Shown here: positions 1 to 7,201 of the stretch, piece after piece
Layout: the number at the start of each line of letters is the position of its first letter
Position numbering within the stretch: position 1 is the first letter of the stretch
IMG/VR virus record: IMGVR_UViG_3300029310_000130
Location: 1 to 7,201 of that record
Length of the DNA stretch: 7,201 nucleotides
Strand: one strand, 5' to 3'
From: a virus
Lineage: Duplodnaviria > Heunggongvirae > Uroviricota > Caudoviricetes
The notes under the pieces: model-generated
The model's input: the letters and a program-made list of their open reading frames with translations, nothing else
Told to the model about the DNA's origin: nothing
The model's database searches: none
Translations under genes and position numbers: made by a program

Positions 1-1846
1 ACTTCTTATGAAGTGCATCACCAACAAGTCGTCGTTGCTTATTGAGATTTGCATAAGTTAATGCGCCGTTCTTGCCTGGATTAACTGCCCGAAAGACTCT
101 CTTTTCAATAGGGTCAAGGTTTTTCATCCCGCCAAGATCTTCTGCCACCTGTTTGAGCATTGACCTTGTTGATGGCGCATCAATTTTTGCACCTGCAGGC
201 ATCGCCTTTTCAACATTGCGATAAAGCTGGTCGCTTCGTTTCATCAGCGCAGACATTCTTCCATTGATCGTATCAATAAACTTGTCGCTCATACCAAGAG
301 CATCTTTTGCACCGGAAACGCGATCAATTATCTCCCCCGCGCCATGTGCTAGTTGCCTGATTGCTTCATTTTCCTGCACCCGTAGAGCAGAACCCGCACG
401 GGACTTGATTGCTTGCTCAACTGCCTTGTATTGCTCGTTCCCGGAAAAGTGTGAAGGGAGTAATGAATCAACATTAAGCCTTTCAGCAGACTCCAGAACT
501 TCAGCCTGAGGATTGATATCTAGTTCATCAAGCGATGAAGCGAGATTTGGCCTTTTTTGTGCTGCTACTGTGCGAACGACCTCCTCTGGGTCCCTCGCCG
601 CAGGCGTCATTGGTACACCTTGTGCTGCTCTTGCCTCTGCGGCATGAACCGCAGGATTTGTTGCTGCAGCGGCATCACCGGAGAATGGTGATGTTTCTGT
701 TGGCGCAGTACCGGAGAATGGTGATGTTTCTGTTGGCGCAGTGGTCGCTCTCTGTGCAGATGTTTTATTGCCACTAATTATATTTGATGCACCACGAACA
801 CCACGGGTAACGCCATTTATCAGGCCATGCGTAGCAATGTTAAGTCCGGCATTAATAGCGGCATTTTCGGCAAAATCACCCCGTTGATTCGCCGCGTCAG
901 CGAGAGAACCAATGACCATGTTTCCAGCTACTCCTGCTCCAGGAACAAGATAACCGCCTATTGACTCTCCAGCTTGCGCATAAGGGTCTGTCGGTCGATC
1001 TACTGGACGATAGACATCGTCCAAAACCTTGGGGCCACCAAGCCCCTGGCTGATTGCATTAATCAGACTTGCGCCACCCTGCAATACGTCAAATGGTATG
1101 TTTACCAGACCACGACCAGCCTGCTCTGCAATTTGCCCTGCACTTTGACCACCTGTGAGCCAATCGCCAGCTTGTTGCATCAATGATGGTTCTTCACGTG
1201 CTGGTTCATTATTGGCCTGATTAACTGTTTGTTGCTGAACAGGTTTCGGTGCGACAGAACTTACGGGTTGAGGTGGCTGCTGACTGGCTGCCTGCTGCTC
1301 AATCTGAGCAAATGGATTATTTGGGTCTGACTGCACACCTGATGTCGATACTTGTTCGGATGACTGTGCTTCCAGTTGTGCAAACGGGTTGTTAGGGTCT
1401 TGCTGAGGATGTACCTTTGCAGAGGTGGCGCGCTGTTCGACTGTTGAGTCTGTCACCGGGTCACCCGCCCATTGAGCAAAGCGATCATCAACGTAACCGC
1501 GGCCTTCAGGTCCTGGCGTATATTCACCACGCTTTGCCTTCATAACGTTGCCGGGACCGTCGTGATAAGCCTGAAGAGCATCACGCCAGTTACCAAACTG
1601 CTGGTACATCTTTGCCAGATAGCGCGCGCCAGCGTCAGCCTGATATTCGGGGTTTTGCATTTGCTCATCGGTATAACCCATATCACGCCATGTCCCAGGC
1701 ATGACCTGAGTCAATCCTACAGCCCCGGCGGAGCTTACTGCGGCAGGGTTGTAAGAAGACTCCTTGGCACCCAGTGCAGTCATCAACCCTTCTGGCACAC
1801 CGTAACGTGCGCCAGCCTGCTCTAACAAATCACGGTAATTAGCCAT
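1..1846 (-). CDS. Third ejection (internal virion) protein in the P22 gene-16 position, with N-terminal lytic transglycosylase (SLT) domain; partial, 3' end lies beyond window start (at least 615 codons)
   Basis: Not in the ORF track because no stop occurs in-window. Manual translation of the minus strand from ATG at 1846-1844 shows no stop codon down to position 2. Start is TAAATG-coupled to the upstream gene stop (TAA 1849-1847) with a GGGG Shine-Dalgarno about 6 nt upstream. N-terminus reads [62 protein letters not shown]...[12 protein letters not shown]. Position immediately after the gp20 homologue matches P22 gene order 7-20-16. Confidence 0.8.
677..742 (-). repeat. Perfect 33-bp in-frame tandem duplication (2 copies) encoding [11 protein letters not shown] twice
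   Basis: Plus-strand 677-709 (accggagaatggtgatgtttctgttggcgcagt) is identical to 710-742. 33 bp is 11 codons, so the reading frame is preserved. Confidence 0.9.
1256..1399 (-). repeat. Imperfect 72-bp (24-aa) tandem repeat encoding a Q/P/N/S-rich linker
   Basis: Two adjacent 24-codon units both begin DPNNPFAQ(L/I)E: unit 1 at 1399..1328 ([24 protein letters not shown]), unit 2 at 1327..1256 ([24 protein letters not shown]). Nucleotide similarity is visible, e.g. gagcaaatggattatttgggtc vs gtgcaaacgggttgttagggtc. Confidence 0.7.
1487..1819 (-). other. Lytic transglycosylase (SLT family) catalytic domain within the ejection protein
   Basis: Canonical SLT motifs seen in translation: catalytic E-S (AKESSYNP, Glu codon at 1762-1760), GL(T/M)Q-x-MP-x-T ([10 protein letters not shown]) and AY(N/H)xG (AYHDGPGNV). 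Domain borders are approximate. Confidence 0.75.
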
Positions 1847-3178
1847 TTACTGCCCCAAAGATGGAAGATATCCGTAGCGATTAATGAAGTCGATTGACAG
1901 CTCGGGGTGCTGCTTCAGGTAATCTATAGAAGCCTGAGGCGCTTCCACTCGCTTGATACCGTTTTGCTGAACGTACTTACCAACCGCCTCATTACGCTTC
2001 TGGTTGAGCGTGTTCAGGATGACGCCAGCGTTGCGACGAAAGGACTCCTCGCTCTGCGAGTTCTGCAGCGAACCAACAGCCTGGTCGAGCTTTTTGCCCT
2101 CGGCATCAGAAAGTGCGCCCATGCCTCGCATGGCCTGAACCGCTGTCAGGTATGCTTGTGATTTAAAGGTATCAAGTCGTGCCTGAGTGTCTGCAGCCTG
2201 TGAGCCTGGAACGTTGGGGATTACTCCACGTAAGCCTGTAATGCTCTTAAGTGAAGGAGAACTAACGATATCGTTCAGAGTGAACATGCTGGTTGTGAGG
2301 GTGTTGATGCCGTCTTTGTAGCCATCATTTAGCGCTTGCTGCTTCTGCTGCAACTGCTGGTTGTTGGCTGCTATGCGGCTCTGTATTTCCTGGCGCTTCA
2401 GGTCGTTAGTTTCTGCTGATAGCATCCGGTCAAGGCGCTTATTTTCGTTGTTAATGCGGTTTGTTTCTGCGTCCAGATTAATGCGCTGCTGACCTAAATT
2501 CGCCTGGATATCTTGCCCGCGCATTGTGATTGCCTGATTCCGAGCGGCGGTTTGCGAATCCAGATCCTGACCGCGCATGGTAACCTGGCGACCCTGCATT
2601 TTATCCTGTAGGTCAAAGTATTTTTCGGGCCCGAGACTGTTCATCCCCAGGTGATCGACAAATTCGCCGAACTGTCGCGGGTTCTGTTGGTACATCTGAG
2701 CGACGTCATGAGGATTAACGCCAACACGAGCTAACTCACCGGCGTTGTTTTGCAGCCATGATTGCATTGCTTCTGGAGACGATGACGCAAGGCGTGCGCC
2801 AGCCGCTAAGGTGCCGATAGAATTGCGCTGCTCTTCATCAATGAATCCCATGCCTTTACGAACAGATTCAATCTGGTCTGGATATTGAGTAGCCAACTGA
2901 CGCAAAGCACCGCGATCACCAGACGCATAAGCATTAGCGTATGCCTGCTGAAATTCTTTCTGCCGCTGAGCCTGCTTTTCCTGCTGAAACACCCCTGCAA
3001 TACCTGAAAGACCTTGCAAAGCAGTCAGCCCAACATTGTTAGCGCCTGAACGCTCAATATCATTGTTCTGCCTGATAAGCTGAAGCGTATTGCCGATGTC
3101 ATTTACGCTCGGAGCGTTTGAGTTGACGCCGCCGATACCAGCTAACAATCCGCCATTTGATCCTTGCCAAGTAGCCAT
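1847..3178 (-). CDS. gp20: Ejection protein, P22 gp20-like (443 aa)
   Basis: ORF-track ORF with ATG at 3178-3176, preceded by TAAGGGGTAATC (gp7 stop then GGGG Shine-Dalgarno). Sits between the gp7 homologue and the third ejection protein as in P22. Q/N/A-rich with predicted coiled-coil character (LQQKQQALNDGYKD...). Size is close to P22 gp20 (about 470 aa as I recall). Identity is by synteny and composition rather than exact sequence recall. Confidence 0.75.
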   Translation of the reverse strand: MATWQGSNGGLLAGIGGVNSNAPSVNDIGNTLQLIRQNNDIERSGANNVGLTALQGLSGIAGVFQQEKQAQRQKEFQQAYANAYASGDRGALRQLATQYPDQIESVRKGMGFIDEEQRNSIGTLAAGARLASSSPEAMQSWLQNNAGELARVGVNPHDVAQMYQQNPRQFGEFVDHLGMNSLGPEKYFDLQDKMQGRQVTMRGQDLDSQTAARNQAITMRGQDIQANLGQQRINLDAETNRINNENKRLDRMLSAETNDLKRQEIQSRIAANNQQLQQKQQALNDGYKDGINTLTTSMFTLNDIVSSPSLKSITGLRGVIPNVPGSQAADTQARLDTFKSQAYLTAVQAMRGMGALSDAEGKKLDQAVGSLQNSQSEESFRRNAGVILNTLNQKRNEAVGKYVQQNGIKRVEAPQASIDYLKQHPELSIDFINRYGYLPSLGQ

Positions 3179-3187
3179 GATTACCCC

Positions 3188-3880
3188 TTAAAACAACGAG
3201 CCAAGCAATCCGATACCAGCACCAATTCCAGCGCCCCAAGGTGTTGATGTTCCCAAAAGGCTGGCAAGACCTGCACCGGCAATCGCACCAGACGTGCCAC
3301 CGCTAATTGCAGTCTGAAGACTTGATGGTTTATTGGCATTAGCAGCGGCAAGAGCTGCGCTTTGCTGTGCAATGCTGCTCATGTTGTTGGCGTACGTCTG
3401 CCCGGCGTTTGCCTGACCTTGCAGCGCACCAAGCCCAACGTTTGCCAGATTGTTGTAATTGCTCATCTGATTTGATAACCAAGACTGACCGAGTGTCGGC
3501 GCGATCGTAGCCAGTTGATTGCTTGTGGCTGTCGAACCAAGTCCACCCGTCGCCTCCGCAGCAGCAAGACTCTGGTAACGCGCCTGACCTGCAAGGTCTT
3601 TATACTGCTGAGAGTTGTAATACTGATTAAGTGCCTGCCCCTGACCTTCTAAACTGGAAAGATTCTGAAGCTGGTTAACATACTGCTCCGCAAGCGGCGT
3701 GAACGGAGCAAGGTTTTTCATGATCGTCTGCCACTGCTGATTTTGCAGGTCTGCGGCATACTTCTGAGCTTCTGCTGCATACTTTGCGCTTTTATCAGAG
3801 CTGCCACCTTTCCCGCCTTTTTCAGGACAATAAGGTTCCTCGCTGCGCAGTTTTCTGCCCAGCTTAAATGCATATAACAT
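3188..3880 (-). CDS. gp7: Ejection protein, P22 gp7-like (230 aa)
   Basis: N-terminus MLYAFKLGRKLRSEEPYCPEKGGKGGS matches my recollection of the P22 gp7 N-terminal leader region. Gly/Ala-rich C-terminal tail (GAGIGAGIGLLGSLF). ATG at 3880-3878 with GGGAGA Shine-Dalgarno upstream. Length matches P22 gp7 (about 229 aa). Confidence 0.85.
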   Translation of the reverse strand: MLYAFKLGRKLRSEEPYCPEKGGKGGSSDKSAKYAAEAQKYAADLQNQQWQTIMKNLAPFTPLAEQYVNQLQNLSSLEGQGQALNQYYNSQQYKDLAGQARYQSLAAAEATGGLGSTATSNQLATIAPTLGQSWLSNQMSNYNNLANVGLGALQGQANAGQTYANNMSSIAQQSAALAAANANKPSSLQTAISGGTSGAIAGAGLASLLGTSTPWGAGIGAGIGLLGSLF

Positions 3881-3882
3881 GG

Positions 3883-4338
3883 CTATCTCCCGTGATTCAG
3901 GAAGTCGATTAGTTCTTCGCGTGTGGCGCTGTAAAACGTCACGTCATCCACGCCTTTGAAGTATTTCTTGATGGTTCCTACACGCTTAAGGCCAATCATT
4001 GCGCAGTACATCTGCCCGTGGCGGAATTTGCGTGCAGCGAACGATGTGACGCACTGAACGGTGGTGTTAGTCAGAATGTATCGCCAGAACGCCAGACCGA
4101 TTTCCTTGCTGAAGCCGCGAATCTCTGGCAGGTACATGGCGTGGCAATCGAATGTAAGAGGCTGAATTTCCTGATAGTAAACAATGCCGCCGAACTGCCC
4201 GTGCACGTTCACCTCAAAGTAACGGCATTCAGGTTTGTAGTCGTATCCATCACCGTTGTTGCTCCCGGAGATAATGTCAGGGTGATTTCCTACTGCTTCG
4301 ATCAGGTCGATGTTTCGCGTTGGTTTGAATGTAATCAT
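3883..4338 (-). CDS. Protein in the P22 gene-14 position (151 aa); presumed virion-assembly/ejection accessory protein
   Basis: ORF-track ORF whose ATG (4338-4336) overlaps the gp26 stop as TGATG. Lies between the tail needle and gp7 genes exactly where P22 gene 14 sits. I cannot confirm sequence identity to P22 gp14 from memory. Confidence 0.6.
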   Translation of the reverse strand: MITFKPTRNIDLIEAVGNHPDIISGSNNGDGYDYKPECRYFEVNVHGQFGGIVYYQEIQPLTFDCHAMYLPEIRGFSKEIGLAFWRYILTNTTVQCVTSFAARKFRHGQMYCAMIGLKRVGTIKKYFKGVDDVTFYSATREELIDFLNHGR

Positions 4339-5039
4339 CAGTCAATCAGCCCATGTAATCTAAGTGCTGTTTCAAGCGCCAGAATACGCTGCCGCGCCTG
4401 CTGCAAACCTGTAGCGAGAGCTGCGACTTCGGATTGTGTGTACGTAGTGCCGACCGTGTATGACTGGTTAGCGTTGAATGAGCCAAGAAGTGGCGTACCT
4501 GTGGCTGCAGTCCATCCGGTCTGTCTTGCTCCAACGACCTGAATTCCATCAACTGAATATGATGTTTTTACATCCAGCGGTGACGCAAGAGACTGCGATT
4601 CGGTTACAGTTTTCGATACGTAATCACTCTTAATGTCAGATACATCGCTTTCTACGCCATCCAGTCTTTTGTCAACAGTGACCAGATGCGCCTGAATATC
4701 GATAACCTCATCCAGCAAGTAATCAACATCGCTACGCAGTACGACTATCTTCCCTTCGGCGGTTGTTAACCTGACCTCAAGTAGATTTATCGCTTTTGTG
4801 TTTGCGGTGATTCTTGCGTCGTGATCAGCCAGTTCGACGTCCTGTTCATCGTTTTTCACCTGAGCATCGTAAGCGCCCTGACCAGCCTGATTTGCCTTCC
4901 CGGCAATTGCGCCAACATCAGCTCCCTGATTTATGACATACAGCAGATAAGACTGGCTGAATATATTGCGTGGCAAAATTGAAGCATCAAGGCGCGTAGC
5001 CTGAACCGCGACAGGATTATTCAGTGATGAATCCGCCAT
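4338..5039 (-). CDS. gp26: Tail needle / plug protein, P22 gp26-like (233 aa)
   Basis: N-terminus [73 protein letters not shown] and C-terminus ...[13 protein letters not shown]...[34 protein letters not shown] closely match my recollection of P22 gp26. Same length as P22 gp26. ATG at 5039-5037 overlaps the gp10 stop (TAATG). Confidence 0.9.
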
Positions 5040-6395
5040 TACTCAATCCTTATCTGGCAGCCAGACAGAGTGACAGGTGACTTCGTGATAACGCGCAATT
5101 TGAAGCCGACATTTTTCCTGATGCGCCCGACCCGCTTCCACAAAACGCGTTTGTCGTAAACGAACGGTTCATTCTGCTCAATCATCTGCTCACGACCGTA
5201 ATTTATGCCGTCAGTGGTTGCAGAGAGGAACAGGCGGTCAGCATACTGCGCAACGCCAGTTGAAGATTCAACTTCAAGGTCGAAAACTCTGGCGTTATCC
5301 GCTTTGAACAGTGGAGTAAACAGCAGGTGTTCCTGCTGCTTGTCGTACTGGCTGCTGATGTCGAATTGCAATTTCCCGGTCACGGAATCCAGCTTATCGC
5401 CGCACGTTATCTGATTGCCTTCGTAAATGAAGTCGATAGCGCGGTACACATCGTCATACAGGCCTGTTTTCAGTACACACCATTGCGGACCATTGGCGCT
5501 TGAAGATGCGTCGTACACCAGAACATGGCGCGGAAGGTGGATAATCAGCAACTCATGCGCATCAAATCGCAGAGACTCCATCACGCCATCAGCCAGTTCA
5601 TCAGCAGTGTAGGAGCGGAGGATTTTCTCAATGCTCGCGCTGGCGATTGGTGACACCTGACCGGAGCCGATAATGTATACAGACGGCGCACCCGTTGCCG
5701 GATTGCTGATAAACGCATAGGAATCAGCAAACGGCGTTTTGCAGTAAGTTCCGGCGATGCCTTTTTGCACCATCAGTGATGGCTGTGCGACATACAAAGC
5801 AGCACCAACGGTGGTTGCGCCAGTCAGGGAGAAATATTCAATCGTCGATGAACCAAAGCAGACGATGAAGTCTCGCCATGTGCCGATACCGATGATGCCG
5901 TCAGGCTGCGACTCGGCACGATATTGTGCGCTGTATCGGTCAGGGTGCGATTCGTCTTCAAGATCAGTGATAAACCATGAATCAGTGCCGTCTTTTGACC
6001 ACGCATAACGCCCACGTAAGCGTGTAATGTCGCGGACTGAACCTAACTCATACTGTGTGAATCCGCTGTCTGTAGGCCAGTTTGAGACGGTTTTAACCGC
6101 GCCATCATAGCGATACTCGACCAGTTGACCATTAACGCCTACCGCCTGTGATGTCCGACCATGCGCCATTGATACGCGACCACTTCCGGCAACATCACCA
6201 ACCTCGCTTTCTCCTTTGTACAGTTTGCCACCACATACGCGATAAACAGCACTCTGCGCCATGTTGTACTCGACGCCGCGAGATACACCGTTCACATCAG
6301 AACGTTTGGCAATGCCCGGGAATGAGCGAAGATATCCGCTGCTGTTNNNNNNNNNNGCCGACACCTTTCATAAGCGGAAGTTGCTGAATAGGCAT
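5039..6395 (-). CDS. gp10: Tail hub / packaged-DNA stabilisation protein, P22 gp10-like; interrupted by a 10-N gap near the 5' end
   Basis: The 441-aa track ORF ([15 protein letters not shown]...[17 protein letters not shown]) matches my recollection of P22 gp10 and is close in length to it. The true start is the ATG at 6395-6393 (overlapping the gp4 stop as TAATG), encoding [13 protein letters not shown] before the N-run. The GTG at 6364 used by the ORF track is an artefact of the gap. Confidence 0.85.
6347..6356. other. Assembly gap (run of 10 N) inside the gp10 coding sequence
   Basis: Ten consecutive n characters. The reading frames on either side of the gap are offset by 1 nt, so the true missing length is not 10. 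Confidence 0.95.
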
Positions 6396-6895
6396 TATTC
6401 GCTCCCGTTATCGCAAGGTTCCTTTCGGTGGAAGTAATTCCAACCATTCCACTTCGCCAACTGGTTACCACTACCAACAGGCATACGGTTTGGATAACCG
6501 GACTTACATTTAGCTGCTTTTGCCCTGTCCATTGCAGACAGTTTGACGAGTCGCTCTTTCCCGTATCTGGCAGTGGTTATAAGTTTTGCAGACGCTTCCA
6601 GCGCATAATCTGGAGCAATTCGGCAGGCAAGGTTGAAAATGACGGCATTGATAGCGTTATTTGATAAGCCGTGCTCATCGCCCGGATCTGGAGCGACATC
6701 TGCATCAGCGAAAATGTAGCCAACGTTGATACCAGGTGACGCATCACCTCCAAGCCATTCAGCCATCATCATTTCAAGGTCGTTGACGCCGTCTTCCATA
6801 GACTGCGGTTCGACATCGGTTAACGTGGCATTTGATGCCACACCGAGCTTACGTAATGCCGCAAGGACTAAATCACCCTTCGTTGTCAGGTTCAT
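6395..6895 (-). CDS. gp4: Head-completion / tail-adaptor protein, P22 gp4-like (166 aa)
   Basis: [47 protein letters not shown]... resembles my recollection of the P22 gp4 N-terminus. Start chosen at ATG 6895-6893 (AAGG Shine-Dalgarno at 6908-6905, 9-nt spacer), giving 166 aa like P22 gp4. The longer track ORF begins at a TTG at 6961 and is rejected. Confidence 0.85.
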
Positions 6896-7201
6896 CTGCT
6901 GCCGCCTTAGGTTTTCGACTAGGCTTTTTACGCTGTTTTTTTTCTGGCTCTGGCTCTGCAATGGCCGGACGCAAACTCAGGAGTCGTCCAAGAACATCAT
7001 TTGCTTCATGACCATCCCACTCTTTCCCGAACTCAAGCTCAGTACCTTCAGGAAGGAACTCGATTTCTTCAACAGGTAGGTGATAAGTGATTTCGCCTTC
7101 TGGAGTGGTGATACCAGCAATGATCCAGCCATCCCACTCTTCACCGTCACTGTGTTTGCGAGACCACCACGAAAGCTCAGCGTAAGCATGCATCAGCGAT
7201 G
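6873..7201 (-). CDS. Hypothetical small acidic protein upstream of gp4; 5' end may lie beyond the window
   Basis: 106-aa track ORF from ATG at 7193. The frame stays open upstream to the window edge, so the true start may be outside. Composition: 24 Asp/Glu vs 13 Lys/Arg, with the first 66 residues 17 acidic vs 3 basic. Repeated EWDG motif (EEWDGW, KEWDGH). Basic tail [13 protein letters not shown]. Stop TGA at 6875-6873 lies 23 nt inside gp4. Function not recognised. Confidence 0.55.

Follow-up and report, generated by a model that had tools for sequence, protein, structure and literature searches.

Background

The ejection proteins of phage P22 leave the virion before the DNA and build a conduit across the periplasm, and two of them, gp16 and gp20, must match each other (PMC8402733, PMC10883804). 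P22 gp16 is packaged in the head, ejected ahead of the DNA and associated with membranes (PMC10883804, PMC4755594). In phage T7, the N-terminal transglycosylase of gp16 is needed when peptidoglycan is highly cross-linked, with Glu37 as its catalytic residue (PMC8954989). Here we describe a gene that combines features of both systems. It occupies the gene 16 position in a P22-type block of virion genes from a member of the Caudoviricetes (IMG/VR virus record IMGVR_UViG_3300029310_000130, positions 1 to 7,201; this whole stretch of 7,201 nucleotides (nt) is hereafter "the window"). We read its product as a P22-type gp16 ejection protein in which a module of about 200 residues, a family-1 lytic transglycosylase (SLT) domain plus a linker, has taken the place of the short native N-terminus; by analogy with P22 and T7 this module would cut the cell wall at entry. 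We put the probability of this reading at roughly 0.8.

The gene and its lytic transglycosylase domain

The gene lies on the minus strand at 2–1846, and the window holds its N-terminal 615 codons. Translation from 1846 down to 2 gives 615 sense codons and no stop, a run with a probability of about 1.5e-13 in a random frame, and the DNA is 99.4% identical to Sf101_0013 of phage Sf101. The start codon (ATG, 1846–1844) abuts the stop codon (TAA, 1849–1847) of the upstream gene at 1847–3178 (minus strand), which encodes a 443-amino-acid (aa) homologue of gp20, the ejection protein that forms the periplasmic tube (PF16928 Inj_translocase, E=1e-67; phrog_2534). An earlier note on this DNA had proposed both the gp20 homologue and a following gene open for at least 615 codons, and had explained that the listing of open reading frames (ORFs) missed the latter because it runs off the end of the window; all of this agrees with our translation and searches. 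The note had also raised an in-frame stop or frameshift between the SLT domain and the downstream region as a way to be wrong. The frame is in fact intact in independent sequences: it is also uninterrupted in at least seven phage genomes, among them Sf101, APC_JM3.2, Dewey, Huey, IME10 and phiKp_30, in 70 complete Escherichia coli genomes and in full-length proteins from five other genera, which excludes a frameshift or assembly artefact.

The SLT domain spans aa 1–125 (1472–1846, minus strand). Pfam SLT (PF01464) matches aa 7–110 (nt 1517–1828) with E=2.1e-25 and 89 bits against a cut-off of 21.3, and the closest solved relatives by sequence are E. coli Slt70, MltC and MltE, with T7 gp16 a weaker match. 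NCBIfam has no specific model for the protein and gave only sub-threshold matches to cellular lytic transglycosylases. The predicted catalytic acid is Glu29 (codon GAG, 1760–1762, minus strand), which belongs to an E-S motif at the end of the second helix: Glu29-Ser30 aligns with Glu478-Ser479 of Slt70, and Glu29 aligns with Glu37 of T7 gp16 and is invariant in 15 aligned sequences including T7. Family-1 lytic transglycosylases share two further consensus motifs, G-L-M-Q and A-Y-N-x-G. These are matched by GLTQVMP at aa 44–50 and AYHDGPGN at aa 93–100, with Gly44, Leu45, Gln47, Ala93, Tyr94, Gly97 and Gly99 invariant in 15 relatives. The strings quoted in the earlier note as the signature of an SLT-family domain fall at the same places (AKESSYNP at aa 27–34, a second at aa 44–53 and AYHDGPGNV at aa 93–101), so its identification of the domain holds, with the catalytic Glu aligned. 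Across 17 SLT-bearing relatives, down to about 50% identity, E-S, GLxQVMP and AY(H/N)xGPGN are invariant or nearly so. This conservation argues for a domain retained as an enzyme, with a predicted lytic transglycosylase activity.

Structure prediction points the same way. AlphaFold2 run on all 615 residues gave a mean predicted local distance difference test (pLDDT) score of 52 and was usable for the SLT domain only, so this domain was modelled separately. The model of aa 1–135 (pLDDT 83.6) has a lysozyme-like, all-helical fold, and Foldseek matched it to Slt70 (template modelling (TM) score 0.76), Pseudomonas aeruginosa Slt (0.64), MltE (0.53–0.61) and T7 gp16 in three entries (0.69–0.76). 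Slt70 and MltE are the best sequence and fold matches for aa 1–130 and have the same catalytic E-S motif. They differ in being housekeeping enzymes of the cell, not virion proteins, and in having further accessory domains and a signal peptide or lipid anchor.

Linker, conserved segment and body

The SLT domain is followed by a linker rich in Gln, Pro, Ala and Ser (aa 126–216; 1199–1471, minus strand). Its composition (17 Q, 12 P, 11 A and 10 S among 91 residues) and its pLDDT below 50 in the full-fragment model predict disorder, so the flexible linker of the earlier note stands, with one refinement: it contains a repeated motif, DPNNPFAQ(L/I)E, found by motif search in two copies 24 residues apart (aa 150–159, 1370–1399, and aa 174–183, 1298–1327, both minus strand). 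Both copies are kept in Klebsiella and Shimwellia relatives even though the spacer between them has diverged, and the repeat is possibly a docking peptide. At about aa 202–206 ("VQQQTV"; 1229–1242, minus strand), comparison with IME10, phiKp_30 and E. coli PK8217 reveals a recurrent mosaic joint between the SLT and linker module and the rest of gene 16.

Downstream lies the segment that identifies the protein as a gp16 (aa 217–353, starting SLMQQAGDW; 788–1198, minus strand). It is Gly/Ala-rich and weakly hydrophobic, with hydropathy maxima near aa 256 and 307, and it is 81% identical to aa 53–189 of P22 gp16 (137 residues, E=1e-67). This segment is common to nearly all gp16 proteins we compared, and nearly invariant across an alignment of seven. 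The variable helical body then begins (aa 354–615; 2–787, minus strand); it is of the Sf101 type, related to the bodies of HK620 and Murrayvirus, not to those of P22 and Sf6. The PHROG family phrog_770, "DNA transfer protein", matches aa 108–615 (E=4e-115), and PF26808 (Phage_P22_gp16) is present on near-identical relatives in precomputed assignments. With the P22 match and a full-length relative's match to HK620 gp16 (E=2e-75), these results bear out the claim that the body is that of an ejection protein, and the region after the SLT domain is homologous to known virion internal proteins.

Within the body, a perfect 33-bp tandem duplication (677–742, minus strand; Tandem Repeats Finder score 132, 100% match) encodes an 11-aa unit twice, at aa 369–390. 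The unit is polymorphic: single in Sf101, which leaves an 11-aa gap, and doubled in the prophage of E. coli CFSAN064035 and in PK8217.

The C-terminal third of the protein is outside the window and is taken from relatives that are 98.6–99.6% identical. Full-length near-identical copies are found in Sf101 (911 aa) and in CFSAN064035 (922 aa), whose prophage gene has 98.6% DNA identity to the window and shares the 33-bp duplication. These relatives establish the fusion as a complete, intact gene. Cysteine is absent from the 615 residues, and no classical transmembrane helix was predicted in the full-length twin (Kyte-Doolittle with a 19-residue window, maxima only 1.18). The lack of both cysteine and a strongly hydrophobic helix is consistent with a protein that unfolds, passes the portal and refolds.

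Comparison with other gp16 proteins

The closest named relative is gene 13 of Sf101 (Sf101_0013, AII27837.1), which has 97% protein identity over the whole fragment, the same position after gene 20 and the same layout of SLT domain, linker and gp16. It differs in having one copy of the 11-residue unit, as against two in the window. In the Sf101 genome paper, ORF13 figures only as a variable "injection" protein, with no discussion of the domain (PMC4159516).

P22 gp16 (609 aa), the prototype inner-membrane ejection protein, shares the gene position and the conserved segment, where its match covers aa 221–353 of the full-length relative. It differs in having an N-terminus of about 50 residues (MKVTANGK...) with no SLT domain, and beyond the conserved segment the two bodies have no detectable similarity. 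For HK620 gp16 (722 aa), homology begins at the conserved segment and extends almost to the C-terminus (34% over 635 aa, against a full-length relative), but its N-terminal module is another one (MAKAWKDV...), again with no SLT domain. Pfam SLT has no match in the gp16 proteins of P22, HK620 or PK8217, in line with the statement in the earlier note that P22 gp16 lacks such a domain. Sf6 gp16 is also without one, and Sf6 gp13 gave no BLASTP match to the fragment.

In two lytic phages of other genera the layout resembles that of the window. The "DNA transfer proteins" of Murrayvirus IME_EC2 (1007 aa) and Skarprettervirus Skarpretter (977 aa) sit in the order gp4-gp10-gp26-gp14-gp7-gp20-[SLT-gp16]-tailspike, as in the window, and their SLT domains are 58–67% identical to ours; for IME_EC2 the homology is full-length (31% over 997 aa, E=8e-108). 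They have an extra 30–40 residues (MAN(V/I)FDQFDQ...) ahead of the SLT domain, and their linkers are without the DPNNPFAQ repeats.

T7 gp16 (internal virion protein D, 1318 aa) is alike in layout: it is the largest ejection protein, carries an N-terminal family-1 lytic transglycosylase, and is encoded by the last gene of a three-gene ejection cluster, with Glu29 aligned to Glu37 and TM scores of 0.69–0.76. The sequence similarity, however, is 28% identity confined to aa 2–119, and BLASTP found nothing significant beyond aa 119. Aligning 26 P22-like with 8 T7-like bodies using hhalign gave a probability of 0.3%, and three sub-family profiles gave 1.3% or less. We therefore found no homology to the T7 gp16 body of about 1100 residues, with its membrane regions and cytoplasmic DNA-binding hub, and the idea that SLT-bearing proteins are a "missing link" to T7 gp16 through remote body homology is rejected on the strength of these searches. 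The parallel with T7 gp16 drawn in the earlier note thus stands for the layout and the SLT domain but does not extend to the bodies. The protein belongs to the family of P22 gp16 and not to that of T7 gp16, and would work like the N-terminal part of T7 gp16 (gp16-N). In T7, gp16-N ("wings" plus "molecular tape") binds the C-terminal domain of gp15, and T7 forms an ordered core stack, while P22-like phages are reported to be without one (PMC8954989).

A separate observation concerns the T7 group itself. The annotated T7-like gp16 of Vibrio phage VP4 (NC_007149) is 1124 aa long, and its start lies only 27 nt ahead of the part that aligns with T7 gp16 from about aa 185. It thus appears to be without a transglycosylase domain, and the presence of the domain may therefore vary within the T7 group too.

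Distribution and exchange of the module

The module is present in 70 of 5,426 complete E. coli genomes, and the 604-bp DNA of SLT domain plus linker is at least 99% identical in 69 of these. The conserved gp16 segment occurs in 666 genomes, so about one in ten P22-like gene 16 sequences carries the module. It is found in cultured phages as well: Sf101 lysogenises and serotype-converts its host (PMC4159516), and Dewey and Huey were isolated from sewage on E. coli K-12 (PMC12243541). In these three viable phages, SLT-gp16 is the only gene 16 homologue.

Near-identical copies of the module precede at least three kinds of downstream sequence. One is the Sf101 type, as in the window; another, in Dewey (875 aa), is the HK620 type; the third, found in IME10 and Klebsiella phage phiKp_30, belongs to a protein of 797 aa that differs after the linker and ends in a P22-like C-terminus. 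The last two phages share only nt 1229–1846 with the window. The reverse situation is seen in E. coli PK8217, whose gp16 gene has 99.6% DNA identity to window nt 1–1242 and is SLT-less: its product starts with a 32-residue P22-type N-terminus in place of the SLT module, and the joint is at aa 202–206. That the module is joined to several body types, that a natural SLT-less twin exists, and that the module is constantly coupled to one kind of gp20 C-terminal half (see below) are additions of this analysis.

Divergent copies of the module (45–80% identity) occur in prophages of Cronobacter, Klebsiella, Shimwellia, Pluralibacter and Serratia, with the same synteny at every locus compared. The layout is standard in Skarprettervirus and Murrayvirus, which are lytic relatives whose virion genes come in the same order. 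The catalytic motifs are kept throughout, in the relatives at 45–80% identity from these five genera and in Skarprettervirus and Murrayvirus.

Two annotation details were seen at these loci. The IME10 records (NC_019501) have no annotated gene at the gene 16 position, where an intact 797-aa SLT-gp16 ORF lies at 1225–3618 of the locus compared. In CFSAN064035, a partial second "lytic transglycosylase domain-containing protein" pseudogene without an N-terminus (3552–4451 of the locus) sits between gene 16 and the tailspike gene; it looks like a relic of another gp16 C-terminus left by recombination.

Linkage to the C-terminal half of gp20

The module does not travel alone. In IME10, phiKp_30 and Dewey, the block of high identity that includes the SLT module runs unbroken through gene 20, and SLT-less phages lose similarity between nt 1243 and about 3009, a span made up of the module and all of gp20 except its first ~56 residues. 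The joint SLT-gp20 block is present in 65 of the 70 E. coli genomes that carry the module. Among the rows sampled from the roughly 700 other E. coli hits, the match was confined to a stretch within the N-terminal half of gene 20.

At the protein level, the type of gp16 N-terminus predicts the type of gp20 C-terminus in 20 loci with no exception. The first SLT type goes with a gp20 ending in ...DFINRYGYLP (10 loci), the SLT domains of Skarpretter and IME_EC2 with ...KYG(Y/F)LPEG (2 loci), and a second SLT type, from Serratia, with a gp20 end of its own (1 locus); the MKVTANGK N-terminus goes with ...SKSGIQFTVE (4 loci) and the MAKAWKDV N-terminus with ...FSSLWGD (3 loci). The gp20 N-terminal part and the gp16 body, by contrast, reassort freely relative to this block. 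For example, the gp20 of P0016 has an N-terminal part 84% identical to that of the window and an unrelated C-terminal part, while in Shimwellia the corresponding values are 49% and 76%. The C-terminal half of gp20 (aa 241–443, ending DFINRYGYLPSLGQ; 1850–2458, minus strand) and the gp16 N-terminus (aa 1–206; 1229–1846) therefore behave as one mosaic block and are inherited together.

One explanation would be an exchangeable two-gene cassette in which the C-terminal half of gp20 directly contacts the N-terminus of gp16 in the assembled conduit. This would fit with the hybrid-phage genetics of Leavitt et al., in which P22 with Sf6 gp16 alone or Sf6 gp20 alone is dead and the pair together works (PMC10883804), and it would resemble the binding of T7 gp16-N to the C-terminal domain of gp15 (PMC8954989). 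However, the adjacency of the two genes could by itself yield the linkage pattern, and we regard direct contact as a tentative proposal that is somewhat doubtful on balance. If it were true, the cassette would locate the gp16-gp20 contact required by that genetics (PMC10883804), the DPNNPFAQ(L/I)E repeats would be candidate docking peptides, and the "periplasmic tip" of P22-like phages would be an interchangeable part that, in one of its versions, cuts the wall.

Proposed function and alternatives

Our proposal for the function of the protein, including that it is an active enzyme, that it is part of the virion, and when and where it acts, is built by analogy with P22 and T7. About a dozen copies would be packaged inside the head. 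Upon tailspike binding and loss of the gp26 needle, gp7, gp20 and gp16 would exit through the portal in an unfolded state, and the SLT domain would refold in the periplasm. With Glu29 as acid catalyst, it would cleave MurNAc-GlcNAc bonds locally, leaving 1,6-anhydro-MurNAc ends and widening the peptidoglycan mesh where the gp20 tube passes toward the inner membrane. The Gly/Ala-rich segment and the helical body would then engage the inner membrane and complete the DNA conduit.

Several points weigh against this proposal. The searchable papers give no biochemical or proteomic evidence for the protein or a close relative. The SLT-less gp16 of PK8217 has the same body, and P22, Sf6 and HK620 infect without the domain, so the mechanism can work without it. 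In P22 virions, muralytic activity has already been ascribed to gp4 (PMC5380687), and the window encodes gp4 too, so the SLT activity may be redundant. In addition, near-identical relatives are the only source for the C-terminal third, which is outside the window. The module is probably useful under certain conditions and not essential, as in T7: otherwise identical gp16 proteins lack it, the model phages infect without it, and P22 already has gp4 as a protein to which muralytic activity is attributed.

The alternative that survives best, though we consider it unlikely, is that the SLT domain mainly docks or anchors: it would bind peptidoglycan or the C-terminal domain of gp20 and so position the conduit, with catalysis dispensable. 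Such a role would suit the constant pairing of the module with one type of gp20 C-terminal half, the repeated and conserved linker motif, the existence of SLT-less twins, and the situation in T7, where the "molecular tape" that follows the SLT domain binds gp15 (PMC8954989). However, Glu29-Ser30, GLxQVMP and AYxxGPGN stay invariant or almost so even between deeply diverged sequences, which is unexpected if binding alone mattered. Docking and catalysis are also not mutually exclusive.

Much less probable is that the protein is a tail-associated lysin and not an internal ejection protein, as suggested by the name "lytic tail fiber protein" attached to phrog_21143 and to Sf101 gp13 in RefSeq. The gene is in the gene 16 position directly after gene 20, its conserved gp16 segment is 81–100% identical to those of other gp16 proteins, and relatives carry Pfam Phage_P22_gp16. 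Moreover, Sf101, Dewey and phiKp_30 have no other gp16 gene, and the tailspike is encoded by a separate downstream gene with a Head_binding domain.

A late role, in lysis or in wall remodelling at virion release and not at entry, seems slightly more improbable still. SLT domains do occur in some phage endolysins (phrog_669 and phrog_10475, both weak matches), but here the domain forms part of an ejection protein of the packaged type, encoded in the late virion operon, and the window shows no signal sequence or holin context. P22-like phages also carry a separate lysis cassette elsewhere, which counts against this role.

That a sequencing or assembly artefact joined two genes has a negligible probability: nothing favours it, the only masked run of Ns lies elsewhere (6347–6356), and the same uninterrupted frame recurs in the independent phage and bacterial genomes given above.

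Existing annotation and significance

As a sequence, the gene is not new. Gene 13 of Sf101 was named "transglycosylase" in GenBank (2014) and "lytic tail fiber protein" in RefSeq, the Prokaryotic Genome Annotation Pipeline (PGAP) calls the product a "lytic transglycosylase domain-containing protein" in many genomes, the protein is grouped in phrog_21143, and the Pfam architecture SLT plus Phage_P22_gp16 is on record. It is thus already known as a database object but little discussed. The earlier note had left it undecided whether the architecture was already described; it is annotated in public records (Sf101 and prophages), but we found no description of an SLT domain on a P22-like gp16 in the searchable literature, and an earlier description in print is possible. 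Two reviews omit SLT-bearing gp16, one of them stating that such activity is absent from P22-like phages, and the reviews consulted credit gp4 as the only virion lysin of the P22 group. One genome paper files "transglycosylase" under DNA replication and modification (PMC10345575).

The databases contradict the gp4-only view, as the cultured phages Sf101, Dewey, Huey, IME10 and phiKp_30 and whole sister genera carry the module. Wall crossing by short-tailed phages is structurally understood only for T7, and near-identical gp16 proteins with and without the module are a natural experiment on whether, and when, local peptidoglycan cleavage aids DNA delivery. The linkage to the C-terminal half of gp20 further points to a possible gp16-gp20 contact site. 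The gain is modest, namely better annotation and a testable system with no new principle, and we see this as a correct, well-supported reading of an ordinary but under-appreciated protein.

Other features of the window

The window as a whole is a P22-type virion block with every gene on the minus strand. The order is gp4 (tail adaptor, about 6395–6895), gp10 (5039–6395), gp26 (needle, 4338–5039), gp14 (3883–4338), gp7 (3188–3880), gp20 and gene 16. In Sf101, Dewey, CFSAN064035 and eight further loci, too, gene 16 follows gene 20 directly and precedes the tailspike region.

The run of 10 Ns (masked or unknown bases) at 6347–6356 falls within the 5' part of gp10, and both the GTG start and the "XXXX" residues listed for this gene are artefacts of the run; the real start is the ATG at 6395–6393, which overlaps the gp4 stop (TAATG).

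Compared with Sf101, the ejection genes of the window are about 96% identical, and identity drops or is lost at 4560–4792 (the distal part of the gp26 needle gene) and 6357–6910 (gp4). This divergence in gp26 and gp4 is the ordinary mosaicism of head-completion genes.

Between the coat region and gp4, a 106-aa ORF (6873–7193, minus strand) overlaps the gp4 start. It matches the C-terminal part of the profile of phrog_3769, a family of unknown function (E=4e-53), and a similar gene is annotated in the CFSAN064035 prophage.

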